Origin: Acidimicrobiia bacterium | Lineage (GTDB): Bacteria > Actinomycetota > Acidimicrobiia > Spongiisociales > ZC4RG35 | Reading direction: 5' to 3' | Length of the DNA: 64,000 nucleotides | Assembly (NCBI GenBank): GCA_963665765.1 | Contig: OY762464.1 | Location: 233,741 to 297,740, forward strand | The notes under the pieces: model-generated | Databases searched by the model: none | What the model was told of the DNA's origin: nothing | What the model saw: only the letters and a program-made list of their open reading frames with translations | In this document: positions 22,533 through 49,743 of the stretch, piece by piece | How positions within the stretch are numbered: position 1 is the first letter of the stretch | Layout: each line of letters begins with the position of its first letter | Position numbers and translations under genes: made by a program

Positions 22533-22652
22533 CTTCCTGCTTCGAGGATTTTCCGGCGTGCGGATGAGTATACGAAATGTGTTTGTATTCTGGGATACCA
22601 AGCTTGTTATCATTGAACTCAACCATTCCAAGGACGGGAGACCACAAGGGCT

Positions 22653-22898
22653 ATGAAGGTTTGGATTGATCAAGACCTCTGCACCGGCGATGGGCTGTGC
22701 GAAGAGATTGCCCCGGATGTTTTCGTTCTCCTGGATGACGGCCTGGCCTACGTTCGGGACGGCGAGACCATCTATGCGGAAGCCGAGGGACACATACAAG
22801 GCGCCGGTGGGCTCGCAATCGTTCCCGCCGGCCAAGAAGACATCACCATCGAGTCTGCCGAAGAGTGCCCCGGGGAGTGCATCTTCATAGAGCCCTGA
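22653..22898 (+). CDS. small [3Fe-4S]/[4Fe-4S] ferredoxin
   Basis: 81 aa with the [26 protein letters not shown] cysteine pattern of single-cluster actinobacterial ferredoxins. Confidence 0.85.
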
Positions 22899-29052: not shown

Positions 29053-29100
29053 ATCCGAGACCGCCGGTCACCAAATTCCGGGCTTATAGCATCATCAACA

Positions 29101-30105: not shown

Positions 30106-30284
30106 CCACCCTCAAACAGTCTTGCCTAGCCCGCCAGGGGAAGGTCTCCGCAAAGTGCCTGTCCGGTCAAGCACTAAATCGGCTCTTCGGATTTCTCGGG
30201 GGAGTTGGGTATCTATCGATTGTGATGGGGGGTCCTCCATAATTCGGGTGCTGAAGCAATTTCGCATCCGAGAAGGAGGACCCT

Positions 30285-31143
30285 GTGGAGACTGGTGGTA
30301 GGCGTATGTGCGAGGTGCTGGTTGGGCTGGGTGAGGTGGACCTGGTAGGAGTCGAGGAGCTGTCGGGAGACCGGCTGAGAGTCACTATTCGGTCTCGTGG
30401 GCCTCGCCCGGTGTGTGAGGGGTGTGGTGGGAGGGTGTGGTCCAAAGGTGATCGGCTGGTGCGATTGGTGGACTTACCGGCGTTCGGTTGTCCGGTGCGG
30501 CTGCGGTGGAAGAAACGCCGCTGGGTGTGCCCAGATGTGATGTGTGGTATGAAATCGTTCGCGGAGCAGGACCTGTCGGTGGTACCGGAGCGGGCGTTGT
30601 TGACGTCTCGAGCGGGACGTTGGGCAACCCAGCAGGTCGGGCGTCTTGGTCGCACGGTGTCGGAGGTGGCAGAAGAGTTGGGGTGTAGTTTGGCACACGG
30701 TCAACCGTGAGATCGTCCGTTGGGGAGACGCGCTGTTGGAAGCCGATGTTTCGCGGTTCGGTGCCGTGGAAGCGGTAGGTGTGGACGAGACCCTGTTCTG
30801 GCGCAAGGGCCAGTGGAGGAAGAGCAGTGGTGCACGTCGGTGGTAGACGTTGGTGGCCATCAGCTGTTGGATATTGTGCCTGGTAGAACAGCTGAAAGCG
30901 CCGCCAGTTGGTTCCGGAACCGACCCGATGGGTGGTGTGAGGCGATTCGGTGGGCGGTGCTGGACATGTCAGGCCCCTACCAGGTCGCCTACGACCGGGT
31001 GCTGCCCCACGCCCATTCAGGTGGCCGACCCATTCCATGTGGTCCGGCTGGCGAACCGCTGTGTTGACCTGGTACGCCGACGGGTCCAGAACGAAACACT
31101 GGGACAGAGCCTGTATACATGTCTGTGTGAGGTGGTTCTTTGA
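30285..31143 (+). pseudogene. ISL3-family transposase, multiply frameshifted and 3'-truncated
   Basis: Zinc-finger N-terminus (..CEGCGGRVWSKGDRLVRLVDLPAFGCPVRLRWKKRRWVC..). ISL3 blocks continue across three frames (..VGVDETLFWRKG.. / ..LLDIVPGRTAESAASWF.. / ..DPFHVVRLANRCVDLVRRRVQNETLG..) and end where the IS256 copy begins. Confidence 0.8.
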
Positions 31144-31187
31144 GCTTGGCTGGCGAGGTGGCTGGCCTGTGAAGGAGATGATTTGAA

Positions 31188-32230
31188 ATGACTGCTAGAG
31201 ATGTGACGGAACGGGCGGCTGTGGCTGTGGTGTCTGATGAGCTTGTGGAGGCGGTGGTGGCTGATGCGGCTTCTGGTGGTGTGGAGCTTTTGGGTCCTGA
31301 TGGGGTGCTGGCCGAGTTGACCAAGCGTGTGCTGGAACGGGCTTTGGCCGAGGAACTGACCGATCATTTGGGCTACGAGCATGGTGATCCTATGGGTCAT
31401 GGGACGGGTAACAACCGTAACGGGTCCACTCCCAAGAGGGTGCTGACCGAGATCGGAGCGGTGGATCTGGACGTTCCCCGTGACCGTAACGCCACGTTCG
31501 AACCCAAGATCGTTCCGAAGGGCGCCCGCCGGCTGGAACGTTTCAACGCCAACGTCGTGGCGTTGTACGCCCGGGGTCTGTCCACCCGTGACATTCGCTC
31601 CGAGCTGGCCCGCATGTACGGCGTGGACGTGTCGCCGGCGCTGGTGTCGAAAATCACCGACGGGATCGTCGAGGAGCTCACCGAGTGGCACAAATCGGCC
31701 TCTTGACGGGTGCTATCCGCTTCTGTACATAGACGCCATGGTGGTAAAGGTCCAAAAGCGACGGCACGGTCATCAACCGCCCAGCTTATGTGGTGGTCGG
31801 CGTGGACGTGGAAGGCCGCAAACACGTCCTCGGTGTCTGGTTGGGCGACGGCGGCCAAGCGCGCCAAACTTCTGGCTGTCGGTGCTGACCGAGAATGCGC
31901 CACCGAGGCCTCGAAGACGTGCTGATCGTGTGCTGCGACGGCCTCAAGGGACTCCCTGACGCGATTGAGGCCACTTGGCCCCAGGCGCTGGTACAGACCT
32001 GTGTCATACATCTGCTGCGGGCCTCTACGAGGCTTTGCAGCCGGGGAAGACCGCAAAATGATCGCCAAGGGGTTACGGGCTGTGTACACCGCGGTGAACG
32101 CCGAAGCGGCCGCCCAGGCGTTGGAAGAACTCGACGACCAGTGGGGAGATCGCTATCACACCGGGATGCTCCTATGTTTGATGGTCCCCGGGTTTTGTGG
32201 AGTCAGCTTACTTGGATCAGTGGTGTGACG
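31188..32230 (+). pseudogene. IS256-family transposase, frameshifted and 3'-truncated
   Basis: N-terminus ..LAEELTDHLGYEHGDP..NRNGSTPKRVLTEIGAVDLDVPRDRNATFEPKIV... Later blocks sit in other frames (..LYIDAMVVKV.. / ..[34 protein letters not shown]..), cut off by the IS3 insertion. Confidence 0.8.
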
Positions 32231-33115
32231 GTTTGGTTGTTGTGGTAGTGGTTGGTTTCGTATTCGATCGGGGTGAGCATGTTCAGGGACGTGTGGCGCC
32301 GTTGGCGGTTGTGGAAGACTTCTAGGTATTCGAAGATAGCGTTGGCGAGTTCGATACGGGTCCTCCAGCGTTGGCGGTCCAACAGTTCGACTTGCATACG
32401 GGCCCAGAACGCCTCCATCAGGGCGTTATCAAAGCAGTCGCCGACGGTCACCGATCGACGGTACGAGTCCGGAATCGTGGGCTCGTTGGGTGAACGCCCA
32501 GAAGGGTGCATCTGGGTGCCCTGGTCCGAGTGTATAACCGTTCCTGAGCGCGGCTGGCGGTTGCTGATTGCCATACCAAGTGCGGAGGTGACCAGTCCCG
32601 CGGTCGGAGAGTTGTCGATTGACCAGCCCACGACCCGGCGGCTGAACACGTCAAGCACTCCACGGCACAGTACACCCTGCCTTCCCGGGTGGGATGTTCG
32701 GTTATATCGGTCACCCACAACTGGTCCGGTTCGGAACGGGCCAAGGTTGCGGTCGACCAAGTCGACAGGGGTGTCCACGGGACGGGGGCGCCGCCTGGGC
32801 CGGCGGCTTCCACTAAGACCAGCTATGCCGGCTCGGCGCATCAGCATCGCTACCGCGTTGTGCCCGACGGTGATCCCATGACCCAATGCGAGTTCGGCAT
32901 GTACCCGCCGTGCTCCATAGATACCCCGTGACCCATGATGGATCTGACAGATGATGTCGGTGAGCCACGCGTGGCGAATTAGACCGGGCCGACGGAGGAC
33001 GGGACCTCCACACAAAGAATCCCGACTCCGACCACACCCAGCACGCCACCTGGGTGGAGAGCCCCTCGGTTCTCATGGTCTGGATCGCTTCGTAGCGTCT
33101 TTTGCGGTGCACCAC
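32203..33115 (-). pseudogene. IS3-family transposase OrfB (DDE integrase core, extra frameshifts) plus the C-terminal part of OrfA
   Basis: ..WVTDITEHPTREGRVYCAV.. / ..DVFSRRVVGWSIDNS..VIHSDQGTQ.. / ..DCFDNALMEAFWARMQVELL.. split over two frames. OrfA tail ..TELTVTKRAIELLKGKVVHRKRRYEAIQTMRTEGLSTQVACWV. Confidence 0.8.
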
Positions 33116-33180
33116 CTTGCCTTTGAGCAGCTCGATAGCTCGCTTCGTTACGGTTAGTTCGGTTTCCAGTTCTCTATCCG

Positions 33181-35133
33181 GCCCGAGTTTGGCGGGTCAA
33201 GGGGGTTTGGTGGGATGTGATTGGTGTGTTGACCTGGGGTTTTGTGTTGTGAGGGGTTGCTTCTGCACGATATTGTAGGGGCGACAGTTGGTTGGTGTTA
33301 GGGAGGTGGTGCTGGTAGTATTGTGGGGTATGTTCGTTAAGACGACCCGCCGTAGGAGGGGCGACAAGGTTTACGAGTACTTGTCGTTGGTGGAAACGGT
33401 TCGCAAGGGGTCGAAGATCGGCCATCGGACCCTGTTGCGCCTGGGAGAAGTCACCGCTTTACGCCAATCGGGACAGTTGGGACGGATCATCGCCGCGTTG
33501 GAACGTCACCTGCACAAAGAACGCGTCGACGTTGACAGCTTGGCCGCCGAGGGAGCACCCGCGGTAGGAGCAGTAGCCGCAGCGGCCGCGGTATGGAAAC
33601 AACTGGATCTCGGGGGGTTCTTCACAAAAGTAGGCGCGGAACGCCGTGCTGACGTTTTGGAACATGCAGTGTTCGCGATGGTGGCGAACCGGCTGGTAGC
33701 CCCGTGTTCGAAACGTCGTCTGCCCGAATGGACAGAACATGACGTGGTGATGCCCCAAGGCTGGTCAGCGCCGTCGTTGGACCAGTACTACCGGGCCTTG
33801 GACGCCGTCGCCGACACCAAGAACGAGACCGAGGAGCATTTGTATCGGCGGTTGTGCAACCTGACCAACCTGAACCTTCGGCTGGTGTGCTATGACCTGA
33901 CATCCACCTATTTTGAGGGTTCGACCCAAAAGTCGGAAGCGTTTCCGTCGCGGGTGTTCGGGTATTCGCGGGATCATCGCCCGGACAGGCCCCAGATCGT
34001 GATCGGTCTGTTGTGCACCACAGACGGGATCCCGATAGCCCATCATGTGTTCTCGGGGAACACCAACGACGCCTCCACCCTACCCGGGGTGTTGGAAGAC
34101 CTGGCGGGACGGTTCGCGGTGGGCAGGATCTGTGTGGTTTCCGACCGGGGGCTCATATCAGCATCTAACCTGGAAACGGTCACCCAAGCGGGGTTTGATC
34201 ACCTGCTGGCCACCAGACTCCGCCGCGATCGGATCACCGCCCAAGCGCTTTCGGCTATTGACCAGGACACTGTGTGGGTGCAGCTACCCGAACACGGTTC
34301 CAGGGCCGCTGATATCACCCTCGAAGACGGGACCCGCACGGTGGTGGTCGAGTCCGACGCTCGTGCCCGTCGGGACACACAACGCACCGCCGAACTTATC
34401 GCCGCTGCCGAAACGCAGTTGTTGGCGTTGGAACATCGTGTCCGTTCGGGGAGACTGAAAGACCCCGCCAAGATCGGGAGAGCCGCCCAACGCATCCTCG
34501 GCACCGGGCGGGTCGGGCGACTGTTCGACCTCGAGATCGGACCAGGTCGCTTTCTCTACCACTACAACGAGGACAACCAGGCATATGAGAAGCTGTTGGC
34601 GGGTCGCTATGTGCTGACCACCAGTCTCACATCCGCACAAGCCGACACCGCCGAAGTGGTGGCCTGCTATCGCCAACTGCAAACCGTCGAAACCCGCTTT
34701 CGGGTGCTCAAAGACTTCCTACGACTACGGCCGGTGCGGCACTGGACCGAGAAACGAGTCCGCGGTCACGTAGCGGTCTGTGTGTACGCCGCTTTGATGG
34801 AAACGCTCATCACCCAGGCTCTCACCGCAGCCGATGTCCGCGATCCCGACCTCGAACACCAACACCTCACCGCCGCACGGGCCCTCCAACAACTCAACCG
34901 CGTCCGCCGCGTGGAACTGACCACCAACAACCACCAGATCACCATAACCACCCGACGCACCCCCCTACAAACACGGGCACTCGCCGCCATCGGAGTCGAC
35001 ACCCGCACCTGGGACAAAGCCACCATCACCTAACCACCACACCGGCTCAAACACCGAATGTAGTGGAAACACCTTCTTCGCGTATGCCCCCTGACCTGGT
35101 AAAACACAAAACCACCCGCCAAACTCGGGTCCG
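33181..35133. mobile_element. IS1634-family insertion sequence (about 1.95 kb), apparently intact, inserted into the IS3 orfA
   Basis: Terminal inverted repeat (g)cccgagtttggcgggt at the left end, reverse-complemented as acccgccaaactcgggtc at about 35116-35133. Flanking IS3 OrfA reading frames resume on both sides. Confidence 0.75.
33330..35033 (+). CDS. IS1634-family transposase
   Basis: 567 aa uninterrupted with characteristic blocks (..YEYLSLVE..RLVCYDLTSTYFEG..VVSDRGL..). Start at MFVKTTRRRRGDKVYEY. Confidence 0.85.
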   Translation: MFVKTTRRRRGDKVYEYLSLVETVRKGSKIGHRTLLRLGEVTALRQSGQLGRIIAALERHLHKERVDVDSLAAEGAPAVGAVAAAAAVWKQLDLGGFFTKVGAERRADVLEHAVFAMVANRLVAPCSKRRLPEWTEHDVVMPQGWSAPSLDQYYRALDAVADTKNETEEHLYRRLCNLTNLNLRLVCYDLTSTYFEGSTQKSEAFPSRVFGYSRDHRPDRPQIVIGLLCTTDGIPIAHHVFSGNTNDASTLPGVLEDLAGRFAVGRICVVSDRGLISASNLETVTQAGFDHLLATRLRRDRITAQALSAIDQDTVWVQLPEHGSRAADITLEDGTRTVVVESDARARRDTQRTAELIAAAETQLLALEHRVRSGRLKDPAKIGRAAQRILGTGRVGRLFDLEIGPGRFLYHYNEDNQAYEKLLAGRYVLTTSLTSAQADTAEVVACYRQLQTVETRFRVLKDFLRLRPVRHWTEKRVRGHVAVCVYAALMETLITQALTAADVRDPDLEHQHLTAARALQQLNRVRRVELTTNNHQITITTRRTPLQTRALAAIGVDTRTWDKATIT

Positions 35134-35330
35134 GCGGCGAGCAGCCCGCAGTTCTGTTTGCTCTGCTGAAGTAGAGCCGGGTTCTACACCACGGTCAATC
35201 AAGTCCTGGCGCCGCCAGTTGTAGATGGTCTGGTCTGACACTCCAAGGTCCTTCGACAGAGATGCAACTGACCTGCCAGATGCAAGCAGATCCAACACCC
35301 TGCGACGGAACTCGGGCGGACATTTCGATA
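35134..35330 (-). pseudogene. N-terminal fragment of the IS3-family OrfA (HTH), separated from the rest by the IS1634 insertion
   Basis: ..PPEFRRRVLDLLASGRSVASLSKDLGVSDQTIYNWRRQDLIDRG..AEQTELRAARRR then runs into the IS1634 repeat. Confidence 0.6.
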
Positions 35331-35435
35331 CGGCATGAAGACCCTCCTTTTCGGGGTCGGTCACCACCAATTCAAATAACCCGACCCCACAAAAGCGGGG
35401 GCACACCTAACCCCCTCTATGAAACCCGGTGTGAT

Positions 35436-36230
35436 TCAGGATGGGCTCGGTGGCAGTTCGCTTGTAAGTTTGAGAGGTTGGGGCAATTCCGCATTCGATT
35501 CCAGTCCGAGTGCCTCCTTCAGGGACGATGCCAGCCCCGCCCAGTCGCTGTCCGGTTTCCGAAGGCGGTCAAGCGCATCTCGTAGGCTGTTGTCTGACGT
35601 AATAAACACATCGGCCCCGGCTCTTATGGCCGCGGCATAAATGTATGCATCCATCACTTCCATAAGAACGTGGGACCAGACCTCCTGTGCATCAACCCAG
35701 ATGCTATCGGGTGGTACCCATAATCCCGCGGAGGGGTCCTCCACGTCGATTACGTCAAGACGGTAGTCCACCCGGAGTTCGTCGCGGAAGGTCTGCAATT
35801 GATGACCCAACTCGGTGTAGTCTGTTTCCTCCAGGGCAACTCGGAACAACACTTGGGGGCGTTTCACCCGGAGGCTGTGCGGCACCCGTTGACGAATCAG
35901 GTGCTCCAAGCCACGAGCCTCAAGAAGCACGTGATGTAGTTCAGACCAGCAGACTTGTGATGAGAAGTAGAGGTAACCGTCGTCGGCTTTGAGGTGTTGG
36001 AATAACTTCATACCGTCCTTGACGAATTGGGCATCGGTCTTGTTGAGTGCGTCTGTAACCACGTCAGCGGACTCAAGCGCTGTCTTCAGTTCCCCCCAGT
36101 CCGAAACCGCATCGAGTTGGACTTTCGCAGTCGTGCAAGTATCCCAAAACTGGAATAGCCTCACTAAGACGTTGGTATCAAGGAATACGCTCGGCTGAAC
36201 CCTCACGCCGGACGCACTGGCAATTGTCAC
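35436..36230 (-). CDS. PIN-like nuclease-domain protein (gene 4 of the four-gene operon)
   Basis: 264 aa. N-terminus ..SVFLDTNVLVRLF.. and C-terminus ..DAYIYAAAIRAGADVFITSDNSL.. bracket a PIN-type fold with acidic residues. Start overlaps the upstream gene's stop by 4 nt. Confidence 0.55.
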   Translation of the reverse strand: MTIASASGVRVQPSVFLDTNVLVRLFQFWDTCTTAKVQLDAVSDWGELKTALESADVVTDALNKTDAQFVKDGMKLFQHLKADDGYLYFSSQVCWSELHHVLLEARGLEHLIRQRVPHSLRVKRPQVLFRVALEETDYTELGHQLQTFRDELRVDYRLDVIDVEDPSAGLWVPPDSIWVDAQEVWSHVLMEVMDAYIYAAAIRAGADVFITSDNSLRDALDRLRKPDSDWAGLASSLKEALGLESNAELPQPLKLTSELPPSPS

Positions 36231-37393
36231 GTCTTGGCGGGTCCCGGATACAAATCTGCCTCGGCGTCCTCTACGAGTGCTGCGGAGAGTGGAACGTCCT
36301 CTTTCCGTTCAAGGGCTAGGCCAATGGTGTGCCACATGATCTTGATCAATCGTCGCGGACTTGATCGGCTCGTCTCACGGAGCCCGTTCAAAGCGTCTTC
36401 AGAGAACGGCAGAATGCCCTCGCCGCCGTTGATCCGCGCTGGTTTTAGCCGCTGAGCAACGATGCCATAGGCTTCTTCCGCTGAAAGTGGGGGGATAATG
36501 TACCTGTTGACAAAACGCTGAACGAGAGACTTGTCGAGTTCCGACGTTCGAGCGAACCCTTCGGGAGTTGTTGACAAGATAATCCACAACTCTTCGCGCT
36601 GGGCAACATCAAGCAGCCGGCGCAGTGTAGTGGTGTATGCCGCAGCCTGGTTTTTGCTTAAGCGTCTAGCAAGTGCAATGTCCTCGAACTCGTCGAGCAG
36701 AAAGGCTATGCCGTCGGCGTCGAATATTCTCCTCAGGATGGTCACGATGGCTTGGAAGTACCCCGGCTCCTCTCGCTCGGCAACCAAAGACTTCCTAGCA
36801 CGAGGAACGAAGTCTCGATACTCGAAGTAGGGACGTTCACCAGTCTCGACAATGAGCCGCGAAAGCTTGTTCAAGATCTCATCGTCTGTTGCGATGCCTT
36901 GGTCTTTCATGGCTTGGGAGAGCGTCTGTATGGCCTGGTCGCGGAGCGTCCTGTTCCGAAGAGTGCCAAGCCACTGTCCGAACTCAGGCCAAAAGAGGGC
37001 CTGCTGGGCTGCTTCTGTGTTGTTCGGTTGGTACAGCATCTCCCAGAGAGCCTTCGTTACCTCGTAGCGTCCCACCTGACGCATGAGGCGGTTAGCAAGG
37101 TCATAGAACGCAACTCCGGGATTCTCAAAAAAATAGGATTTGACGCGATGTTCGGGAAGCACTTTGGCTTGAATCCAGTTGAGGATGAACGTCTTACCGG
37201 CTCCATACCCGCCCTCAATTATGAGTGCTTTGCTCCCTTGGGACTCGGCAAGGTTTTTAAATCGCATAAGTAGGTCTTTCTCCCAGCTGGGCGGGAGTGA
37301 GATATCATCCACGAATTCGGCCCCGGTGGTCGCAGGCGGAAAGGGATTACGGGTAAGGCCGAGATGGCTTAGTTGGGTATTGGCGACGGTCAT
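36227..37393 (-). CDS. ExeA/GspA-like AAA+ ATPase (AAA_22-type P-loop NTPase; gene 3 of the operon)
   Basis: N-terminal GLTRNPFPP motif typical of ExeA-like ATPases. Walker A IIEGGYGAGKTFIL and Walker B-like ..IAFLLDEFEDI... 388 aa. Confidence 0.6.
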   Translation of the reverse strand: MTVANTQLSHLGLTRNPFPPATTGAEFVDDISLPPSWEKDLLMRFKNLAESQGSKALIIEGGYGAGKTFILNWIQAKVLPEHRVKSYFFENPGVAFYDLANRLMRQVGRYEVTKALWEMLYQPNNTEAAQQALFWPEFGQWLGTLRNRTLRDQAIQTLSQAMKDQGIATDDEILNKLSRLIVETGERPYFEYRDFVPRARKSLVAEREEPGYFQAIVTILRRIFDADGIAFLLDEFEDIALARRLSKNQAAAYTTTLRRLLDVAQREELWIILSTTPEGFARTSELDKSLVQRFVNRYIIPPLSAEEAYGIVAQRLKPARINGGEGILPFSEDALNGLRETSRSSPRRLIKIMWHTIGLALERKEDVPLSAALVEDAEADLYPGPAKT

Positions 37394-38424
37394 GACCTTG
37401 GACCTCCGTTCTGCATGTGTTCGCTAAGCATCCGATGAATGCGGAGATGGGACAAGTAGGCACCGCTTGGTGAACGCAGGTAGCTTTTTAGCGCTAGGGC
37501 GTGCTGGCTATCGGGCAAACCTGCAGTGATGAATCCCACGCGTGTGGGAAGGCCGGCGACAAGACCGAAGTGGTCAGTCAGCCAACTCATGAGAACCCCC
37601 TTGGCCTGGTCAACCGAGACATGCTGCTTAATCCCCGTCGTCAAGGCGCAATCAGGGATCCGTATGGTCGCCCAGTCTCCAGCAAAATCCAGGGCAGCGA
37701 ACATTTCTACCGCTAGTTCGCGGTCGGTCATTCGTGGGACTATGTGTTTAGGATACGCGGTGTAGGTTCCGTTCGGTCTATACATGATGTCTAGGAAGCC
37801 AAGTTGGTCTACGCACCATGATCTGAGGCCGAAGTGAATTGCTTGAATGGCATCGACACCATTTAGGAGGCTCCATTTGGTGGTTCCGACGGGTCGAATC
37901 GCCACTTGCTTCCAGCGGTTCCGGCCAACATAGTGTTCTCGGTCGCTGTCGTGGTCGCCCCTTCGCTCAACACCTCTAGACTGGATAACGACTTCGACGG
38001 GACGCGCTCTCTCTACAAAAGATGTAGCATCGCAGGCCGCTTCTTGAGGTTGGAGGAAGTTCCTAAAGAACACGTCGTAACAGTCCTTGTTTCGGAGGAC
38101 TGCGTTAGCAAACGCCTCCTTCTCGGGTACCTGCAGTTCCTCCCCAAGTTTCGTTGTTGCAGTCAGAATACCTATTTCCGGATTCTGATAGTTGAGAACG
38201 AAGCGGCGCCCCTGCTTCTCCAGGAGATCTAATCGCACCAAGGTCCTCCGGTGGTGGTAATGGGTACTTTGGGCATAGGGCCGTCCGTCTCGGCGCAGGA
38301 GAACACCCTCCTCGGTGGCCAGTGTCTCGATTTCGTTTGCCCGGAGGCCGGGTGGGTGCTTATCAACCAAGAGGAGGAGGTCCCGTAGCGCCCGGAAGTT
38401 GAGCCAACGCATCCAGAGGTTCAT
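37390..38424 (-). CDS. hypothetical protein, possible N-terminal winged-helix domain (gene 2 of the operon)
   Basis: 344 aa with no confident family. 4-nt overlaps on both sides. Confidence 0.45.
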   Translation of the reverse strand: MNLWMRWLNFRALRDLLLLVDKHPPGLRANEIETLATEEGVLLRRDGRPYAQSTHYHHRRTLVRLDLLEKQGRRFVLNYQNPEIGILTATTKLGEELQVPEKEAFANAVLRNKDCYDVFFRNFLQPQEAACDATSFVERARPVEVVIQSRGVERRGDHDSDREHYVGRNRWKQVAIRPVGTTKWSLLNGVDAIQAIHFGLRSWCVDQLGFLDIMYRPNGTYTAYPKHIVPRMTDRELAVEMFAALDFAGDWATIRIPDCALTTGIKQHVSVDQAKGVLMSWLTDHFGLVAGLPTRVGFITAGLPDSQHALALKSYLRSPSGAYLSHLRIHRMLSEHMQNGGPRS

Positions 38425-39671
38425 GGGTTCGTGCCCTTCGACAAAAGGATCACCGATTCTCGGGATGGCTGTCGGCCGTAGCGCCCCATTTGCTGGGCAG
38501 CGTTTCCCCGGGTTCGCATCACCCAGACCGCCTCGAACTTTAGCCCCGCTTGGCTAGCTAATCCGGATACTATCTCATCGGCCGGCACCATGACCCCAGC
38601 GTGCCGGACGTTCCCCACGACGTAGGCTGCCCGCCCACCGGGTCGGAGAATTCGGTCGACCTCTACGAGGGATAGGTAGATGTCCTCAAAATATCCCTGC
38701 AGCAACCGCTTGACACGGTTGTCGGTATTCGCCGGCAGTGCCCGTAGAGTCTCCTGGAGCAACGCAATTGGCTTGTACGCTCCGAGTTGGCGCGTGAAGC
38801 CACGGGGTTTCTTAGCTTCCACATGAGAGCGGATGGAGCGATGCCGAAGCCTGGTGACTTCCGACTCGGCCTCTCCTAAAAGAAGCAATCCGATGTGGAA
38901 AACCCGAGAGTAATCGTGACGGTTCGCATAGGGAGGAGAGGTTATAAGACCGTCAACGGACAACGCCCCAATAGGGAGTTTCCGCGCATCAGCACATTTA
39001 ACCGATGCCGTGTGGTATTCCTCGGGCCAGTTGAGAGCCTCAACGTCGGCCATCATGACAGACACAGTCTCGTTGAAGACGTCCCTTATCTCGGTGCTGC
39101 GGTCGGGCCACTCCTGCCATCGGAACCATCCACCGTCGGGAACAGCCCGGCTAAAGCCCCGCATTGCGGACAAGAGCGCCACGAGGAAGAAGGAGCGGGG
39201 CGTTCCTTGTAGCCTGCGGATCGGTCGGAGGAGGGTAAATATCTCTCTCAATTCCGTCTCGGTAAAGGCTCGCGACAGCCTAGGCGAGACTTGTTGCGGA
39301 TCAACTGATGTGGCGGCGAGAATCCTACGGAAGGCCCGCTCAAGACTGTTCTGGTGGTAGGACGCGATTTTCGCGGTACCTACAGTTACAGACAGAGGGG
39401 AAATATCGAAGCCCAGAGCTGTCAATCCACGCTCCCGCGCGGTGAGCACAGTTGTCCCCGATCCCGAAAAATTGTCAGCGACGATGCCATCACTCGGAAA
39501 ATCCCAATAATCCAGAATCGTGTTAACTAGGCGGTACGAGTAGCTGTGTGGGAAGTAGAACCATCGGTGCCGCGGGGCGGAGCTGAGGTCTCGTGATGTC
39601 GCGGTGGCTGCCAGATCTGGTCTCTGGCTAAACCCTAGGGGAGCAGGTGATGTATCCATGGCTACGGTCAC
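38421..39671 (-). CDS. DNA methyltransferase (N6-adenine/N4-cytosine; motif I before motif IV; gene 1 of the operon)
   Basis: Motif I ..DNFSGSGTTVLTARERG.. near the N-terminus and motif IV ..LITSPPYANRHDYS.. about 190 aa later. 416 aa. Confidence 0.8.
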   Translation of the reverse strand: MTVAMDTSPAPLGFSQRPDLAATATSRDLSSAPRHRWFYFPHSYSYRLVNTILDYWDFPSDGIVADNFSGSGTTVLTARERGLTALGFDISPLSVTVGTAKIASYHQNSLERAFRRILAATSVDPQQVSPRLSRAFTETELREIFTLLRPIRRLQGTPRSFFLVALLSAMRGFSRAVPDGGWFRWQEWPDRSTEIRDVFNETVSVMMADVEALNWPEEYHTASVKCADARKLPIGALSVDGLITSPPYANRHDYSRVFHIGLLLLGEAESEVTRLRHRSIRSHVEAKKPRGFTRQLGAYKPIALLQETLRALPANTDNRVKRLLQGYFEDIYLSLVEVDRILRPGGRAAYVVGNVRHAGVMVPADEIVSGLASQAGLKFEAVWVMRTRGNAAQQMGRYGRQPSRESVILLSKGTNP

Positions 39672-40473
39672 GTCCGGCCCACACCAATGACCCGTATTGG
39701 AGAGAAGGTAGGTAGGAGATGCGTGGGCGAGGATGGGCGAGGCAGTGGTCCACTGCCCACCAGCGTTGGTTGAGTTCTTGGACGAACTAGCGCTTCTGTC
39801 TTTTGGGCCTCATGCAAGTCGTGCTCCCAGAGCCCGTCAAGCCACCCCATTTCACAAGGACCCTGTTTGATCACACCAAGCATCAGACCATGCAAGTCCA
39901 CCAATATCAGTCGAAAACCAACACCCATACATCCCCTCACATTAACGTCATTAGCCCCGCCACCATTAGGAGTGTTAGGGAGGACAAAGCGGTCCGGCTG
40001 GGGTATCGGGGTGTTTACACTACCTTTGACCCGGCGCCTAAGATGAGGGTTTGGGGAGAACACCACGGCTGGGGGAACACCACAATTCACCTTTTGGCTA
40101 CCCCACTTCCCTCACCTTGAGGCAGAATGGCTGGATACCGACCAGCCTCCGTCTGCCGCAGTGGACATTCCCGGCTCCCTAGTCGCACCAGGGACGTGGA
40201 CCGCCTTATGTGATGGAAGTTGCCGCTTGATATACCCCCGGGAGGCATGGATCCCAAGCATATCGCTTTCGATGACCGCTGGTGCACTCAGCAGCCGGGA
40301 AGAACCTTCGGGAACGCCATCACGCCATGACTGAGATGAAGGCCGAGTTGAAGCACGATATTCGTTCGACAGAGATGCGGACCAAGTGTTCCTGTGATCT
40401 TCGGTTTGTTTGAGTAGCGAAAGAGCCCCTTATCCATAACACGATCGTACCGTCCACAGAAGGAACCACCCTG

Positions 40474-42960: not shown

Positions 42961-44121
42961 TTAACCTGCGGCCGCTATCTCGACCATTTTCTCGAGATTG
43001 GCGGCGATCCGGGCTCCGTCGCCGATCTGTTCGGCTGAGCAGGTCACCAAAAATCGCCGCCGGGCGCCCACCATGTCCGCCGCTTCGTTTAGACGGGCCA
43101 TGTCGGTTCGGCTCGGTCGGGTGGTCAGCTTGATCTCGATCGCCCAGAGTTCCCGGCCAAAATCGATGAGCAAGTCGATCTCGCGGCCGTCGGACGTGCG
43201 GAAGTGGCGAGCATCGGCATAGCGACCAGATTGCTGGAGGGCGGTGAGCACCTGCTCGATCACATGGCCTTCCCAGCTCGCTCCCACCCCTGGCGCCTTC
43301 AGCAGATCGTGGTCGGAGTCAACCCCGAGCAGGGCATGCAACAGGCCGCTGTCCCGCCAATAGACCTTGGGTCGCTTGGTAACCCGCTTGCCGATATTGG
43401 CATGGTGGCCCGGCAAGCGCCTTACCAGAAATGCGCCCTCCAGGTAGTCGAGGTACGAGTTGACCGTATGGTACGACAATCCGAGAGCTGCCCCGATGTC
43501 GCTGGCGTTCCAGGTTTGGCCATGGCGCGCCGCCAACAGTCGAAAAAGCCGACTCGTGTTCTGAGGGCTGGCGGGAAGACCCCAGGATGGGAGATCCCGC
43601 TGAGCGAGCAGACTCAGATAGTCCTGCTGCCATTGAGGAAAACTACGCCCGTCCAGCACCCCTCCGTCGGGATACCCACCGCACCGCCACCGCCGGTTGC
43701 GAACCGAATCGGGCAACTCTGTCAATGACAACGGGGACAGTTCCACGATACTGAGACGTCCGGCGAGCGACTCTGAAACATTCTTCATCAGAGCAGGCGA
43801 AATCGATCCGAGCAGCAGGAAACGCCCATTGCGGCGTCGGTCGGAGTCGATCACGCCTCGCAGTCGCGGGAAAATCTGCGGGGCGGCCTGAGCCTCGTCA
43901 ATGACTACCAACTCGTCGGCACGGGCAACCTCGTCCCATTCGAGGTCAATCCTCAGCTGGTCGGTCTCCTGCTCCATGTCGTAATAGCGGCCGCCTAAAG
44001 AACGCGCCAGGGTCGTCTTGCCACACTGACGCGATCCCACAAGAGCCACCGCCGGATAAGAGCCGAGCCGCTTCTCCAGCAAAGAATCCAGACCCGCCGC
44101 GGCGATATTTCGCGGTAGCAT
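42961..44121 (-). CDS. AAA-superfamily ATPase with a DUF4143 domain
   Basis: Walker A GSRQCGKTTL. The domain organisation matches the common AAA_14 plus DUF4143 ATP-binding proteins. Confidence 0.8.
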   Translation of the reverse strand: MLPRNIAAAGLDSLLEKRLGSYPAVALVGSRQCGKTTLARSLGGRYYDMEQETDQLRIDLEWDEVARADELVVIDEAQAAPQIFPRLRGVIDSDRRRNGRFLLLGSISPALMKNVSESLAGRLSIVELSPLSLTELPDSVRNRRWRCGGYPDGGVLDGRSFPQWQQDYLSLLAQRDLPSWGLPASPQNTSRLFRLLAARHGQTWNASDIGAALGLSYHTVNSYLDYLEGAFLVRRLPGHHANIGKRVTKRPKVYWRDSGLLHALLGVDSDHDLLKAPGVGASWEGHVIEQVLTALQQSGRYADARHFRTSDGREIDLLIDFGRELWAIEIKLTTRPSRTDMARLNEAADMVGARRRFLVTCSAEQIGDGARIAANLEKMVEIAAAG

Positions 44122-44335
44122 CCCCCGAGCCTACCAGCCAATTTCTATTTCGAGCCACAATATTTTCTATTTGGCAGAGGGCTACTTCTATTCAGGATGA
44201 TCTTCGCTTCTAAATGGTTTGGCGGTCGGAACTCCCGATTCCGGTTAAGAACGGGTCCAGCCATTGGTTGCTCGGTTCCGTATCCGAAGTCGTCACACAG
44301 CGCTATTTAGGCTTAAAGAAACCTAGCTACAGGTA

Positions 44336-45076
44336 TTGACCATGAAGCCAAACCCGCCCGACCCCCAAAGCGAAAAGAGCAATGGAGGGGCCACCATCGG
44401 ATATGAAGCCGACTTGTGGGCGATGGCCGACGCCCTGCGAGGGAGTATGGACGCCGCCGAGTACAAGCATGTGGCGCTCGGCGCCCAGGGCATCGCCGGG
44501 TTCGTGCTGGCCAACGGCTCGATGTCCTCCAAGACTTCTGTAGAGGGAAAGATCCGGGAAGCCATTGTCGAGGATGACTTGGTGGATTGCATGGTGGCCC
44601 TGCCCGGACAGCTCTTTTACTCCACCCAGATACCGGCGTGCCTCTGGTTCCTGGCCCGCGATCGAAGCGGAGGGGGGCACCGAGACCGAATCGGGGAGAT
44701 CCTGTTCATTGACGCCCGCAAGATGGGCCACATGGTTGATCGCACCCACCGGGAACTGAGCGATCAGGACATCGCTCGCATCGCCGACACCTACCACGCC
44801 TGGAAAAGCAGAGAGCGACCTTCCAAGTACGCCGATGCGCCGGGGTTCTGCAAGAGCGCCACTCTGGAGGAGGTGCGCAAACACGACCATGTGCTCACCC
44901 CCGGGCGTTATGTGGGATTCCAGCCCCCCGAAAAGGACCCTGAGCCCTTCGCGGAGAAAATGGTTTGCCTCAGCGCCCAATGGCGAGAGCAACAGAAAGA
45001 GTCGGCGCGTCTCGACGCTGCCATCGAAGCCAACCTAACCAGGCTGGGCTTTGGCTCACCGGTGGACAAGGCATGA
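44336..45076 (+). pseudogene. hsdM: type I R-M methyltransferase subunit HsdM with a large in-frame internal deletion (the catalytic core is absent)
   Basis: HsdM N-domain (..[23 protein letters not shown]) joins directly to the HsdM C-terminal region (..[47 protein letters not shown]..). The AdoMet/NPPF region is missing. Confidence 0.8.
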
Positions 45077-45495
45077 GGATCAACACCGACTTTCTCACCC
45101 GTTGCATCAGAGCCCTGGAAGGCGCCTACGATCATTTAAGAAAGTACGTGCCCGGCGACGTTTTCTATGACATATTCCGTGCGGCGTGCGTTAAAGAATT
45201 CGAGATCATCCTGGAACAAATCGGAAAACTGTTAAAAAAACGCCTGAGACCCTTCATGGTCTCGAATCGCAAGGCAGACACACTTACCTTCAAGGATTGT
45301 TTCAGAAAAGCCGCCCAGCACGGCCTTATCTCGGTGGACGCCTGCGAACGCTGGCTCATATATCGAGACACCCGTAACGACACCGCTCATGACTATGGTG
45401 CCCAATTCGCCGAAACCACCCTGAAACTGCTGCCGAGATTCATTTCCGACGCCAAGCAAGCGACCGCAGTTCTTTCGGAGCCCTTCGATGATTGA
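45073..45495 (+). CDS. HEPN-domain protein, HI0074 family (nucleotidyltransferase substrate-binding protein)
   Basis: Start MRINTDFL overlaps the hsdM stop. R-x4-H motif [10 protein letters not shown]. About 140 aa. Confidence 0.8.
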
Positions 45496-45841
45496 CCGGT
45501 TGGACCTTCCCACCCGTTATAGAGAGCAGGTTGAAGCCATCTTGCGCGAGCATGTCCCCGACGTGGAAGTGTGGGCCTACGGCAGCCGAGTCAACGGCAT
45601 GAACCATGAGGCCAGCGATCTGGACCTGGTGCTGAGAGGCCCCGACCTGGCGCCGATCCCTTTAGATCAACTGGTTGAACTGACCGAAGCATTTGAAAAA
45701 TCCAACATTCCAATCCTGGTCGAAGCTCGCGATTGGACGAGACTCCCGGAAAGCTTCCACAAGGAAATCGAACGAGACTATGTGGTACTCTTGGGCTGGC
45801 AAAAATTCGATCAGGCCTATTGCCCTCCAAGACTTTGCTAA
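45488..45841 (+). CDS. minimal nucleotidyltransferase (MNT) partner of the HEPN protein
   Basis: GSRVNG..SDLDLVL (GS-x9-DxD) nucleotidyltransferase motif. Its start overlaps the HEPN stop. Confidence 0.8.
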   Translation: MIDRLDLPTRYREQVEAILREHVPDVEVWAYGSRVNGMNHEASDLDLVLRGPDLAPIPLDQLVELTEAFEKSNIPILVEARDWTRLPESFHKEIERDYVVLLGWQKFDQAYCPPRLC

Positions 45842-46242
45842 TGTCATCCCGAGCTCCAATCGGATATTTGGCAATCACAGAAGTCCCCGTGGCAATCAAT
45901 CAGGGAATCATCGCAATCCGCTGTGATAAAAGGACTGGCCCTGTTTACACATTGCACTGGATTGAAGCACATCTTGACGTCATAAAGGCCTGGGCAAGTG
46001 GCACTACCTTTCTGGAAATAAGCAAGTCTTCTTTTCGAACCTGGCCCTTTCTAACATCAACGCAGGAAATTCATGCCGCCTACGAGTCCATTACAGCCCT
46101 TCTGCATAGGCAAATGGCAAGAACCACAAGACAATCCAGCGCGCTTTCCACCCTGCTACCCAAACTTTTATCAGGAAAATTGCGGGTGGGTCGATCCAAA
46201 GGCCTGACGCATCGAGGACAGTGGAACAGATGCCACAGCTAA
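45733..46242 (+). pseudogene. hsdS: type I R-M specificity subunit HsdS fragment (end of one TRD plus the conserved C-terminal region)
   Basis: ..SRAPIGYLAITEVPVAINQGIIAIRCDK..EAHLDVIKAWASGTTFLEISKSSFRTWPFL..LLPKLLSGKLRV. Its 5' part overlaps the MNT gene. Confidence 0.75.
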
Positions 46243-47405
46243 AGAAGACCCTGACCTTGCAGCCCGCCGTCTTGAGATGGGCGCGGGAGCGGGCTGGTTT
46301 AGAGCCCGATGAGCTTGCGGCGCGTCTCAAGGCCCAAACCCGAGACATTGAAGAATGGGAACGCTCGGGCAGGATTAGCTTCGCCAGAGCTGAAGCCTTG
46401 GCCAAAAAAACATATACGCCCGTTGGTTTTCTCTATCTCGACGAGCCGCCCATTGAGAGTCTCCCCATCGCCGATTTTCGCACTCGCGCGGGAACTACAC
46501 CGCCAAGACCCAGTCCCAACCTGTTGGACACCGTCTACCTCATGCAACTGCGGCAGGCTTGGATGAGAGAGGAGCTGATTGGTCAGAAAAGTGCTCCCTT
46601 GCCCTTCGTTGGAGCCTTCGGCTTGGATGCGCCTCCCTCGGAAGTTGCCGCCGCAATGAACGACGCCTTGCAACTGAAAGGAGGTTGGGCAGCGGCAAGA
46701 GGAACTTGGACCGACGCATTACGAACCTTTAGAGACCATATTGCTGCAGCAGGGGTATTGCTCTTCTTCAATGGCGTGGTGGGGAACAATTCCCACCGCA
46801 AGTTGCAAGCTGATGAATTCCAAGGGTTCGCAATGGTGGATGACTATGCACCGCTTATCTTTATCAACAACGCCGATTACAAGACCGCTCAGATGTTTAC
46901 ACTGGCCCATGAGCTGGTTCACCTTTTCGTCAGCGAATCCGGGGTCTCCAAATTGGAGGCCCTGAGTCCATCGGACCATGTCGTTGAGCAAGCGTGCAAT
47001 AGCATCGCAGCCGAATTCCTTGTGCCGAGTCGGCAGTTGCGCCAAACCTGGATCACGGCGAGGCATTCAGACGATCCCTTTCAGCATCTTGCCAGATACT
47101 TCAAGGTCAGCACGGTTGTAGCTGCTCGGCGAGTTCTTGATGCCAACCTAATATCACGAAAGGCCTTCTTCGAATACTACGAAGAAAACAAAGCCAAACA
47201 TTGGGGCGGGACACAGTCGACAGGCAGCAGTCGGGGCGGAAATTTTTGGAATAACCAACGCTGGCGGGTGGGCACTCGATTCGCCACGGCCGTCAGTCGT
47301 GCGGTGATGGAAGGGCGCCTGTCTTACACCGAAGGATACACCCTGACCGGATTGCGGGGCGATACCTTCGCGAACATACCGGCAAAAATGGGCATTGCCC
47401 TGTGA
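46221..47405 (+). CDS. XRE-family HTH fused to an ImmA/IrrE (DUF955) zinc metallopeptidase
   Basis: N-terminal HTH (..LRWARERAGLEPDELAARL..) and the HEXXH motif LAHELVHLF. Confidence 0.8.
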   Translation: MEQMPQLKKTLTLQPAVLRWARERAGLEPDELAARLKAQTRDIEEWERSGRISFARAEALAKKTYTPVGFLYLDEPPIESLPIADFRTRAGTTPPRPSPNLLDTVYLMQLRQAWMREELIGQKSAPLPFVGAFGLDAPPSEVAAAMNDALQLKGGWAAARGTWTDALRTFRDHIAAAGVLLFFNGVVGNNSHRKLQADEFQGFAMVDDYAPLIFINNADYKTAQMFTLAHELVHLFVSESGVSKLEALSPSDHVVEQACNSIAAEFLVPSRQLRQTWITARHSDDPFQHLARYFKVSTVVAARRVLDANLISRKAFFEYYEENKAKHWGGTQSTGSSRGGNFWNNQRWRVGTRFATAVSRAVMEGRLSYTEGYTLTGLRGDTFANIPAKMGIAL

Positions 47406-47935
47406 CGAGTCGTTCTCTCTCAACGTTGGGCTTGGCTACCAGGTATTTGCTGGACACCAACATTTTTATAGCTGCTTGGCGTGATCACTATCCAATAGAT
47501 CTTTACCCAGGATTCTGGGCCTGTCTTGAGCGCTTCGTTCATGAGAAGAGAATTCTGAGTCTTGATAGGGTCCAAAAGGAGATCGCAGGTCCGAAGGAAC
47601 TTGTCATCTGGCTTCGGCACAACTGGCGCGGCGCGTTTGCCTCTACAAGAGACCCCGATGTGACGGGAGCGTTCTCGAAGATACACGATTGGGTGCAATC
47701 AAACAGCCAGTTCTTGTCTGCGGCCAAGCACGAGTTTGCGAGAAACGCTGATGGGTGGCTTGTGGCATACGCCAAGGTGCATAGCGCCATCTTGGTTACT
47801 AACGAGGTCTACAACGAGGAAGTGCGAAGAAGGGTCCCTCTACCCAACTTGTGCAGAAAGTTTGGCGTTGAGGTTTGCAACACGATTGGAATGCTACGCG
47901 GACTCGGGGTCGCATTCGACCTACGGGTCCTTTGA
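47402..47935 (+). CDS. DUF4411-family PIN-like protein (partner of ImmA/IrrE)
   Basis: N-terminus ..RYLLDTNIFIAAWRDHYP... Start overlaps the upstream stop. Confidence 0.7.
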   Translation: MTSRSLSTLGLATRYLLDTNIFIAAWRDHYPIDLYPGFWACLERFVHEKRILSLDRVQKEIAGPKELVIWLRHNWRGAFASTRDPDVTGAFSKIHDWVQSNSQFLSAAKHEFARNADGWLVAYAKVHSAILVTNEVYNEEVRRRVPLPNLCRKFGVEVCNTIGMLRGLGVAFDLRVL

Positions 47936-48920
47936 TGCCCATGGTCGCAGAGTCCGTGGTGGAATTTGCCGCTGTCGATTGGTTCACAGCCTTGGGGTAC
48001 CAGCACATAGCGGGCTCGGAAATGGTGCCGGGGCCTTCCGGCCGGCGTAAGAAAAGCTATGAGGAAGTGGTGTTGAAGCAGGTCCTGCAAGAACTGCATC
48101 GACCGGCTCAACCCGCATCTCGACCCCGGCGCCCGGTTTGGAAGCTTTCCGAAAGATCACCCGGCCGGAGGGGGCAAGCACGGTGGCTCGGAACCGAGAC
48201 TTTTCATCCTTCCAAGAGGTTCGGGCAGTGCTGTCCAAGCCGGCTCCGGGACAATTGCGATCGGACGAGAGGTTGGATTTGGCGGTACGTCAGATAATTT
48301 CCCGAGCCGTGGCACCCGACGGCGTGCTGGACATATTTGCGGCCGCCGGGTTGAAGAAACCGGACATCTCCATCTTGTCGGACGAGTTCCTGGCCGAAGT
48401 GCGGGCCATGCCTCACCGCAACCTGGCCGTGGAACTACTCCAAAAGCTTCTCAAAGGTGAGGTCGCCACCCGCCACCGCAAGAACCTGGTGCAGGCGCGT
48501 TCTTTTTCCGAAATGCTCGAACGGTCTCTACGGCGCTATCAGAACCGCTCAATCGAGGCTGCGCAGGTCATCGAAGAATTGATCCAGTTGGCCAAAGAGA
48601 TGCGAGAAGCGAACGCTCGGGGCGAAAAACTGGGCCTCTCCGAAGATGAACTGGCCTTCTACGACGCCCTGGGAACCAACGACAGCGCCGTGAAGATAAT
48701 GGGCGATGAGGTGCTAAGCGCCATCGCCCGGGAACTGGTGGAGACAGTCCGCAACAATGTCACCATAGACTGGACTCTTCGAGAAAACGTCCGCGCCAAC
48801 CTGCGCCGCCTGGTCAGACGCACCCTGAGAAGGCACGACTATCCCCCCGACAAGCAGGAAAAAGCCACCCGCACCGTCCTCCAACAAGCCGCACTGCTAT
48901 CCGAAACCTGGGCTGCTTGA
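47935..48920 (+). pseudogene. hsdR: type I R-M restriction subunit HsdR remnant: N-terminal about 55 aa joined (with a frameshift) to the C-terminal DUF3387 domain; the helicase/nuclease core is absent
   Basis: [51 protein letters not shown].., then in another frame ..[22 protein letters not shown].. and ..[43 protein letters not shown]... Confidence 0.75.
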
Positions 48921-48970: not shown

Positions 48971-49183
48971 ATGGCCCGCACCAACGTAGACATTGACGAT
49001 CGGGCATGCGCCGAGGTCATGCGGCGTTATCAATTCGCCACCAAGCGGGAAACTGGCAACTTCGCTCTGCGAACTCTGGCGACCGAATCCGCTTCGGTTG
49101 ATGAGGCCCGTGCTCTTCGAGGCATAGGATGGGAGGGAGATCTAGGCGCAATGCGCTCTGACCGAACGTCCCGGCTAGTGTGA
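48971..49183 (+). CDS. VapB-family type II antitoxin (DUF2191-like) with no adjacent VapC
   Basis: MARTNVDIDDRACAEVMRRYQF.. N-terminus. About 70 aa. Confidence 0.6.
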   Translation: MARTNVDIDDRACAEVMRRYQFATKRETGNFALRTLATESASVDEARALRGIGWEGDLGAMRSDRTSRLV

Positions 49184-49194: not shown

Positions 49195-49743
49195 ATGGCA
49201 CGCATCAAGGTCATTCCCGACGACTCTTGGGACGACGCACTCGGTGAGCTTTATCCGCGGGTTGTTGATCCGACCTATGGCCGGGTCGACAACATTCTCG
49301 CCGTGCACTCGATTAACCCTCGCGGCATGGCGGCACACCAGGGTCTGTACGAATCGGCCATGGCCGGGACGGCCACGCTCCGCAAGGTCGAGCGGGAGAT
49401 CCTCGCTCTGGTGGTGAGCCTCGAGAACGAATGCCACTATTGAGTTGTCCACCACCGGCGCGGTCTGCGTCGGTTGCTCCACAACGACGACCTCGCCGCG
49501 GCGATTGAACAAGACTGGACAACTGCCGCGCTGTCGCCAAAGCGGGTGGCGATGCTGAATTTTGCGGTCAAACTGACGGTAACGCCGGGCGCGATGAATG
49601 ACGAGGATGTCAATTCCCTACGAACCGCCGGTTTCTCCGATCGTGACATCCTCGACATAGTCGAGGTGGTCGGCTACTATGCATACGCCAATCGGATCGC
49701 CGATGGTCTGGGCATCGACACCGAAACGTGGATCCCCGATTGA
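49195..49743 (+). CDS. AhpD-like / carboxymuconolactone-decarboxylase-family peroxidase-related protein with an in-frame TGA (selenocysteine candidate) at 49441-49443
   Basis: Tracked ORFs 49195..49443 and 49474..49743 are in the same frame and together match one CMD-family protein. The TGA falls on the second Cys of the redox motif: ..ENECHY-[TGA]-VVHH.. corresponds to C-x-x-(C/U)-x-x-x-H. The C-terminal half ..LSPKRVAMLNFAVKLTVTPGAM..DVNSLRTAGFSDRDILDIVEVVGYYAYANRIADGLGI is well conserved. Confidence 0.6.
49455..49473 (+). promoter_or_regulatory. candidate bacterial SECIS hairpin 11 nt downstream of the in-frame UGA
   Basis: ccggcgc-GGUCU-gcgucgg forms a 7-bp stem (one G-U pair) around a GGUCU loop, which is like the fdhF SECIS apical loop. 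The spacing from the UGA is as expected for SelB-dependent recoding. Confidence 0.5.

Follow-up and report, generated by a model that had tools for sequence, protein, structure and literature searches.

Positions 44336-48920 of the window, the 64,000-nucleotide stretch of Acidimicrobiia bacterium contig OY762464.1 that was analysed here, hold what we read as a dead Type I restriction-modification (R-M) operon. Its three hsd genes appear to be pseudogenes, cut down by deletions that were filtered by selection against antitoxin loss, and the two gene pairs embedded among them, HEPN/MNT and ImmA/DUF4411, are intact. We give this reading a probability of roughly 0.8. The region forms a single operon on the plus strand, a chain of overlapping open reading frames (ORFs) on which the ORF list and the Pfam, NCBIfam and PADLOC matches agree:

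44336..45076, plus strand: hsdM remnant, 246 aa from TTG 44336 or 244 aa from ATG 44342
45073..45495, plus strand: HEPN protein of the HI0074 / NTase_sub_bind family, 140 aa
45488..45841, plus strand: MNT protein of the HI0073 family, 117 aa
45790..46242, plus strand: hsdS remnant, with a possible 133-aa ORF from ATG 45841
46230..47405, plus strand: helix-turn-helix (HTH)/ImmA protein (M78 zinc-peptidase), 391 aa
47402..47935, plus strand: DUF4411 PIN-like protein, 177 aa
47935..48203, plus strand: hsdR N-terminal remnant, ~89 codons in three reading frames
48198..48920, plus strand: hsdR C-terminal remnant (T1RH-like_C / DUF3387), ~240 codons

All eight ORFs lie where an earlier reading of the letters alone (the sequence-only reading) had placed them. 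The lower GC content it had noted for the region was also found: the locus has 0.561, compared with 0.636 and 0.592 for the flanks on its left and right and 0.601 over the whole window.

The hsdM remnant has lost its catalytic core. Its Pfam matches cover only positions 2-26 of HsdM_N and then positions 173-307 of the 311 positions of N6_Mtase; N6_Mtase positions 1-172, with the S-adenosylmethionine (AdoMet) motif I and NPPF, are absent. Related loci are given L numbers where they have to be told apart. Against the 527-aa HsdM of L007, residues 20-46 and 334-524 align and residues 47-333 have no counterpart. The junction, at 44480-44483, is in frame, with ~289 codons missing. These matches bear out the sequence-only reading that the C-terminal region was kept and the AdoMet/NPPF core removed in frame; its statement that the N-domain was kept went too far, as only ~27 homologous N-domain residues remain. 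In comparison with the DNA of L037, the closest less-decayed relative (82% nucleotide identity), the left homology runs to 44482 and the right homology starts from 44480, leaving a GGC overlap and ~867 bp missing. An exact junction microhomology was considered and set aside, since it amounts only to this GGC (possibly GGCGCCC) and the relatives are too diverged for certainty. The stop codon of the remnant overlaps the HEPN start (ATGA), and the public annotation calls the 244-aa form.

What is left of hsdS is the distal part of the second target recognition domain (TRD2) and the C-terminal conserved helix, with ~290 codons missing, in place of the two TRDs and two conserved regions of a complete HsdS. 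It matches Methylase_S at positions 49-131 only, aligns to residues 300-436 of the 440-residue HsdS of L006 and is matched by the PADLOC Specificity_I models at their C-terminal ends only. The earlier description of hsdS as the end of one TRD plus the conserved tail agrees with this alignment and these C-terminal matches. Immediately past the MNT domain, from ~45786-45790 (…ERDYVVL), ~871 bp have been deleted out of frame; HsdS homology resumes there at the equivalent of residue 300/440, in a different frame from MNT. The MNT stop codon TAA at 45839-45841 overlaps the ATG of the hsdS frame. We considered this TAATG overlap (45839-45843) as a newly selected feature and rejected it, as the CTA codon is ancestral and is also present in L040.

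The hsdR gene is left as two pieces joined at ~48203. The C-terminal piece matches positions 86-327 of PF11867 (T1RH-like_C, formerly DUF3387; E 1.7e-101) and aligns to residues 805-1044 of the 1045-residue HsdR of L005 with 78% identity. The equivalent of L005 residues 90-804 (~715 codons, ~2.15 kb) is lost, and no PD-(D/E)xK nuclease or superfamily 2 (SF2) helicase domain is left. In tblastn alignments of the N-terminal piece with L005 HsdR, residues 1-53 lie in frame 1 and residues 63-89 in frame 3. DNA alignments with L002 and L040, which are in frame here, place two single-base insertions (+1 frameshifts) in the window copy, at 48089/90 and within 48135-48139. The retention of DUF3387, the loss of the nuclease/helicase core and the frameshifting had been read correctly from the letters; the ~55 N-terminal residues given there are instead ~89 codons over three frames.

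Compared with intact relatives (L007, L006 and L005/L028), the locus has lost ~3.9 kb in three pieces. It holds neither motifs I and IV of HsdM nor the nuclease and SF2 motor of HsdR that a functional Type I system has, and judging by the missing domains it probably retains no restriction or modification activity. Related genomes do carry the complete operon, as the sequence-only reading had thought possible. In L007 every element of the window locus is present with full-length genes, encoding HsdM of 527 aa, HEPN, a 565-aa fusion of MNT and HsdS, ImmA, DUF4411 and HsdR of 1051 aa. L005 and L028 encode HsdM of 529 aa, HsdS of 418 aa, ImmA, DUF4411 and HsdR of 1045 aa, without HEPN-MNT. In the clade closest to the window, ImmA-DUF4411 is embedded between hsdS and hsdR. 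The hsd ORFs are deletion derivatives, as had been proposed: they align to full-length homologues, and the missing segments are present in the near relatives L037 and L040. The sequence-only reading had named membership in short hsd-like families as the finding that would speak against it; the closest homologues are full length, and the many short HsdM entries among the homologues are either fragments or alleles that were shortened independently, with junctions of their own.

The HEPN and MNT proteins have kept the features of a toxin-antitoxin pair. HEPN, a predicted RNase toxin, carries the R-x4-H motif (RNDTAH), matches Pfam PF08780 NTase_sub_bind (E 5e-15, score 56 with a cut-off of 31.8), has HI0074 as its best match in the PDB (1JOG, E 2.8e-9) and is full length relative to its L006 and L007 homologues (66-68% identity). 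MNT, whose gene overlaps that of HEPN by 8 bp, has a GS...DLD motif, matches Pfam NTP_transf_2 (score 31.9 with a cut-off of 21) and Polbeta, and has HI0073 as its best PDB match (1NO5, E 3e-14). The intact R-x4-H and GS..DxD motifs reported earlier are thus present in proteins of full length. MNT residues 1-101 are homologous, and the last 16-17 residues are out-of-frame hsdS sequence made by the deletion.

In relatives MNT and HsdS are one protein, encoded by fused ORFs in L007 (8304-10001, 565 aa) and L037 (1501-3120, 539 aa). The 485-position PADLOC Specificity_I model PDLC03138 matches the window MNT at its N-terminus (model positions 6-96) and the hsdS remnant at its C-terminus. Because this model spans both, MNT::HsdS is an established architecture. 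MNT was ancestrally the N-terminal domain of HsdS, and such a fusion implies a physical link between the HEPN/MNT pair and the Type I complex. No paper discussing the architecture was found.

The second pair is equally complete. The HTH/ImmA protein matches Pfam Peptidase_M78 (E 2.5e-16), contains HEXXH (HELVH) and is matched by the PADLOC model RmrA (E 5e-20), making it an RmrA-like predicted antitoxin or regulator; a helix-turn-helix is detected only weakly (HTH_31, E 0.002, below the cut-off). RmrA is the zinc-peptidase antitoxin of RosmerTA, and its deletion was untransformable (Millman et al., 2022, bioRxiv 10.1101/2022.05.11.491447). The DUF4411 protein, a predicted nuclease toxin, matches its Pfam family with E 2.4e-45 and, in an alignment of 29 homologues, keeps every column of ≥90% conservation, including the acidic residues D18, E60, D117 and E135. 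DUF4411.1 has been described as a VapC-group PIN-like predicted toxin that partners HTH-DUF955 (ImmA) proteins (Matelska et al., 2017, PMC5499597). A homologous HTH protein and DUF4411 protein have been crystallised as a complex (PDB 9VZY), to which the window proteins align through chain A (HTH/ImmA, E 3e-18) and chain D (DUF4411, E 1.7e-5). With HEXXH present and both proteins full length relative to homologues, the earlier call of an intact pair stands.

The ImmA-DUF4411 pair also occurs on its own. A scan for the ImmA protein with one genome per species gave 28 loci with full-length ImmA homologues, the closest in an Acidimicrobiia metagenome-assembled genome (MAG). DUF4411 lies immediately downstream in 28/28 of them, and in ~19/28 no hsd gene lies within 10 kb, which makes autonomous function of the pair plausible. 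The suggestion that the cassettes may now function alone is therefore plausible, as both are intact and ImmA-DUF4411 is found without hsd genes.

Independent decay of related loci provides a comparison for the window. The sister L040, a 2.84-Mb contig, is syntenic, with flanks 96-97% identical to those of the window: an N6_N4 methylase, an amidase and an AAA_14/DUF4143 ATPase gene on the left, a CMD-like gene and an ABC permease on the right. Within the L040 locus, HsdM residues 1-185 run in frame into the middle part of TRD1 of HsdS, so that the methyltransferase domain, HEPN and MNT are gone; hsdS is split, ImmA and DUF4411 are intact, and hsdR is in frame for 239 codons before a deletion into the vapB-like gene. 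An IS5-family insertion (DUF4096 and DDE_Tnp_1 ORFs, ~0.8 kb; L040 7540-8352, corresponding to window 44210-44212) also separates the ATPase gene of L040 from the hsd promoter region, a short way upstream of hsdM. Because the lesions of L040 differ from those of the window, the common ancestor had the segments missing from the window and the two lineages decayed independently. L037 retains the hsdM core, with one frameshift near NPPFNISDWGG, and directly after hsdM an intact 539-aa MNT::HsdS. Its HEPN gene is deleted in frame, the first 6 HEPN codons being joined to MNT codon 4 (MRLNTD|RLDLPTGYREQ).

Five hsd loci that decayed independently all have ImmA-DUF4411 intact: the window, L040, L002 (an hsdM::hsdS-tail fusion, with hsdR cut after ~190 codons), L003 (hsdR reduced to ~95 C-terminal codons) and L004 (no hsdM, partial hsdS and an internal deletion in hsdR). 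It is the module spared in every one of them. A contiguous tblastn match (6-244) had raised the possibility that L002 shares the hsdM junction of the window; the N-terminal alignment proved spurious, and the hsdM of L002 runs into the contig end and has NPPF. Two further loci, L033 and L038, are also decayed hsd loci in which embedded accessory genes are kept (YhcG and GmrSD; Fic, AAA_13 and a Schlafen-AlbA protein).

The central block of the window and L040 is only 89% identical. Between window 45790-48208 and L040 9549-11976, synonymous divergence (dS) is 0.74 for DUF4411, 0.33 for the hsdS and hsdR remnants and 0.14 for ImmA, with 0.03-0.07 in the flanks. Divergence between the two is thus mosaic, and recombination with an allele of more distant origin appears to have replaced DUF4411, the predicted toxin gene.

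Based on these comparisons, we propose how the locus may have formed. The ancestor would have been a seven-gene Type I R-M operon with hsdM, HEPN, MNT::hsdS, HTH-ImmA, DUF4411 and hsdR. Its inactivation would be recent, after the split from L040, through three separate illegitimate-recombination deletions (~0.87, 0.87 and 2.15 kb) that took the HsdM methyltransferase core, then TRD1, the central region and half of TRD2 in HsdS, and the nuclease and helicase of HsdR. A deletion that removed or silenced an antitoxin (MNT or HTH-ImmA) while its toxin (the HEPN RNase or the PIN-like DUF4411) was made would be lethal. Only deletions that spared the cassettes would have been fixed, mostly in-frame ones that preserved translational coupling, and the scaffold would have been whittled down to the cassette edges. 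Cut free of HsdS, MNT presumably acts as the antitoxin of the HI0074-type HEPN, the role it has in HEPN-MNT toxin-antitoxin systems, and ImmA/DUF4411 presumably forms a RosmerTA-like or three-component-like toxin-antitoxin or abortive-infection module. We infer the toxicity, the antitoxin action and selection as the cause.

The sparing of the cassettes is non-random. When three deletions of the observed sizes were simulated at random, non-overlapping positions, all four cassette genes were spared in 0.8% of trials; the null is crude and takes an 8.5-kb ancestral layout, uniform placement and fixed sizes. Among the junctions not ascertained by frame, 5/6 are in frame, a post hoc count (p = 0.018): those of hsdM and hsdR in the window, the hsdM::hsdS fusions of L040 and L002 and the HEPN deletion of L037 are in frame, and that of MNT::hsdS in the window is not. 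Given the gene overlaps, translation would continue past an in-frame deletion into the antitoxin and toxin genes that follow. Antitoxin-only loss was not seen in the relatives compared; toxin-first loss (L037) and loss of the whole pair (L040) were, both of which toxin-antitoxin logic permits.

Several points weigh against this interpretation, beginning with the crudeness of that null and the post hoc nature of the frame count. For HEPN-MNT, the NCBIfam scores of HI0074 (39.8/55.8), HepT (17.3/60) and MntA (24.8/60) are all under their cut-offs, and the DUF4411 protein has no match to the PADLOC RmrT models. A sigma-70 promoter scan of the locus returned no sites, a result that is uninformative for this taxon. 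The hsdM, hsdS and hsdR C-terminal remnants contain no stops or frameshifts, such lesions being confined to the hsdR N-terminal part, so that the other remnants could still be translated. The hsdM remnant in particular differs between two haplotypes. It contains 11/17 of the differences between the window and L030/L031, 5 of them nonsynonymous and 6 synonymous, giving a ratio of nonsynonymous to synonymous polymorphism (pN/pS) of 0.25 (binomial p = 0.023, n=11). This is a weak hint of a pattern closer to that of a constrained gene than of a pseudogene, with the caveat that n is 11 and that recombination could explain it. Outside the hsdM remnant, the locus is nearly identical between the two haplotypes, a mosaic pattern suggesting recombination.

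These last points lead to an alternative that we consider unlikely, namely that the remnants are retained as a catalytically dead scaffold or regulator of the embedded toxins, as EcoprrI keeps PrrC silent. The parts that remain (the HsdM N-helix and C-region, the HsdS C-helix and the HsdR C-domain) are those that hold the Type I complex together, and the ancestral MNT::HsdS fusion implies that the cassette was functionally coupled to that complex. The hsdM junction is in frame and common to both haplotypes, the three stop-free remnants remain connected by overlaps (ATGA, TAATG and TGATG) that keep coupling, and the pN/pS value departs from neutrality. On the other hand, the value comes from only eleven substitutions, a very small sample, hsdR has two frameshifts and the hsdS junction is out of frame. 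Moreover, the set of remnants differs from locus to locus, with none conserved throughout: what survives in L040 is the N-domain of HsdM and the N-terminal part of HsdR, and in L003 only the ~95 hsdR codons. HsdM alleles that have lost the core in frame have arisen independently in at least five other lineages, each with its own junction (P0003, P0006, P0012, P0024 and P0033; for example …PPEARW|QYGVPP… and …ADALR|DDKRW…). Some of them persist across several MAGs, and P0006/P0128 of Steroidobacteraceae is found on 13 contigs. Such persistence would be in keeping with retained function, but the query that found these alleles was able to detect in-frame forms only, and the C-terminus of P0006 is frameshifted; within-cluster variation is too small for a selection test. 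A broader proposal, in which the cassettes actively shape the decay of R-M operons and the leftover Hsd pieces come under selection as a dead scaffold or regulator, would make this a recurrent fate, as the independent alleles in several lineages suggest; it is speculative, and we think it improbable.

Still less probable is that the sparing reflects chance or recency, with the whole locus decaying neutrally and deletions yet to reach the cassettes. The HEPN-MNT pair is clearly dispensable, the whole pair being lost in L040 and HEPN alone in L037, which would fit this, as would the recency of the deletions, remnants and cassettes being equally similar to relatives (63-78% aa). The ratio dN/dS between the window and L040, which was tried as a means of telling remnants from cassettes and found uninformative, is 0.09-0.26 everywhere, for remnants and cassettes alike; it is uniform because most of the divergence predates the deletions. 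Against chance stand the rarity of such sparing under random placement, the start of the hsdS deletion within a few bases of the MNT domain end, and the five independently decayed loci in which ImmA-DUF4411 is intact, with every conserved residue kept.

That the deletions are assembly artefacts, arising from mis-joined contigs of mixed strains, is hardly credible: several related contigs do end near 48490-48533, where L030 has a scaffold gap, suggesting strain heterogeneity, but the window sits on a 2.94-Mb contig, and four contigs from different metagenome assemblies and assemblers (L001, L030, L031 and L032) span all three junctions gap-free, with identical junctions and 99.6-99.9% identity (2 mismatches in 3265 bp for L001; 17 mismatches in 4397 bp, with no gaps, for L030 and L031). 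An apparent 84-bp extra deletion in the L030 hsdR remnant was discarded as a scaffold gap of Ns.

The same contigs differ from the window just upstream of the locus. Relative to window 44055-44136, L030 (2727) and L031 (2970) have a deletion of ~83 bp that removes the start codon and first ~22 codons of the upstream AAA_14/DUF4143 ATPase gene (42961-44121, minus strand; PADLOC PDC-S01). The window copy is intact, and the L030 and L031 genes are called as 338 aa, without the P-loop. Deletional decay of the island is ongoing.

Directly after the hsdR remnant lies a VapB-family antitoxin gene (48973-49183, plus strand; Pfam E 2.8e-9) with no adjoining vapC, which is partly deleted in L040. L006, L007 and L008 have a PIN (VapC-like) gene just upstream of hsdR, where the window instead has vapB downstream. 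Further on, an AhpD/CMD-family ORF (49195-49743, plus strand; L040 12491-13039) is broken by one in-frame TGA (49441-49443), which takes the exact place of the second Cys in CxxC (ECHY-TGA-VVHH). The Pfam CMD match crosses the TGA (residues 45-123), and the TGA is conserved in L040 (…NDCHY*). The ORF is a candidate selenocysteine protein rather than a pseudogene; a hairpin looked for downstream of the TGA was not significant (z -0.87). To the left, ~11.4 kb of the window (29054-40462) is absent from L040. This segment contains transposase genes or fragments at 31188-31706 and 32203-33015, a DDE_Tnp_1 gene at 33288-35033 and a four-gene cluster on the minus strand, encoding a PIN protein (35436-36230), a BrxC/D-like ATPase (36227-37393), a 344-aa protein and an N6_N4 DNA methylase (38421-39671). 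The cluster is possibly a further defence system, sited in a variable island. The window also carries genes for the Dop depupylase and the Pup-proteasome ATPase (Mpa/ARC) at 19313-22835 on the minus strand; taken with the Acidimicrobiia affinity of the ImmA protein, they point to a probable member of Actinomycetota.

All parts of the locus come from known families, and it is a well-controlled new example rather than a new kind of system. Its closest counterparts are the intact operons of Dehalococcoidia MAGs (L007 and L006; L005/L028 without HEPN-MNT), which are alike in gene order, cassettes and families (63-78% aa) and differ in having full-length HsdM (527 aa), MNT::HsdS (~560 aa) and HsdR (~1050 aa). 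Toxins embedded in R-M loci (PrrC and HEPN) and the idea of a coupling between immunity and suicide have been described (Makarova et al., 2013, PMC3632139). As in EcoprrI-PrrC, a HEPN-family toxin gene, there an anticodon nuclease, lies inside the hsd operon, and the fusion of MNT to HsdS in the ancestor of the window suggests control by the R-M complex. However, the window HEPN belongs to the HI0074 type and has a partner of its own in MNT rather than a fusion to an ABC-ATPase, its R-M partner is dead and any such coupling is lost. The HI0073/HI0074 and HepT-MntA type VII toxin-antitoxin pairs share with the window adjacent overlapping genes and the R-x4-H and GS..DxD motifs, and 1JOG and 1NO5 are the best PDB matches; the window differs in its order of HEPN then MNT, its sub-cut-off NCBIfam scores and the 16-17-aa junk tail of MNT. 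RosmerTA and the Xre-COG2856 plus PIN-like three-component toxin-antitoxin system (Matelska et al., 2017) likewise place a zinc-peptidase/HTH gene upstream of a small toxin gene. The predicted toxin of the window is a DUF4411.1 PIN-like protein and differs from that of RosmerTA in matching no RmrT model.

Our analysis has consequences for annotation and for how such modules are viewed. The three hsd ORFs should be annotated as pseudogenes, and the genome should not be counted as bearing a Type I system at this locus. The ancestral MNT-HsdS domain fusion gives a hint of a link between such cassettes and the R-M complex. The findings support toxin-antitoxin behaviour of two poorly characterised pairs, HI0074-type HEPN/MNT and DUF4411/Xre-peptidase, and the locus provides a clean natural case, with sister-genome controls, of addiction-type modules that outlive their host defence system.

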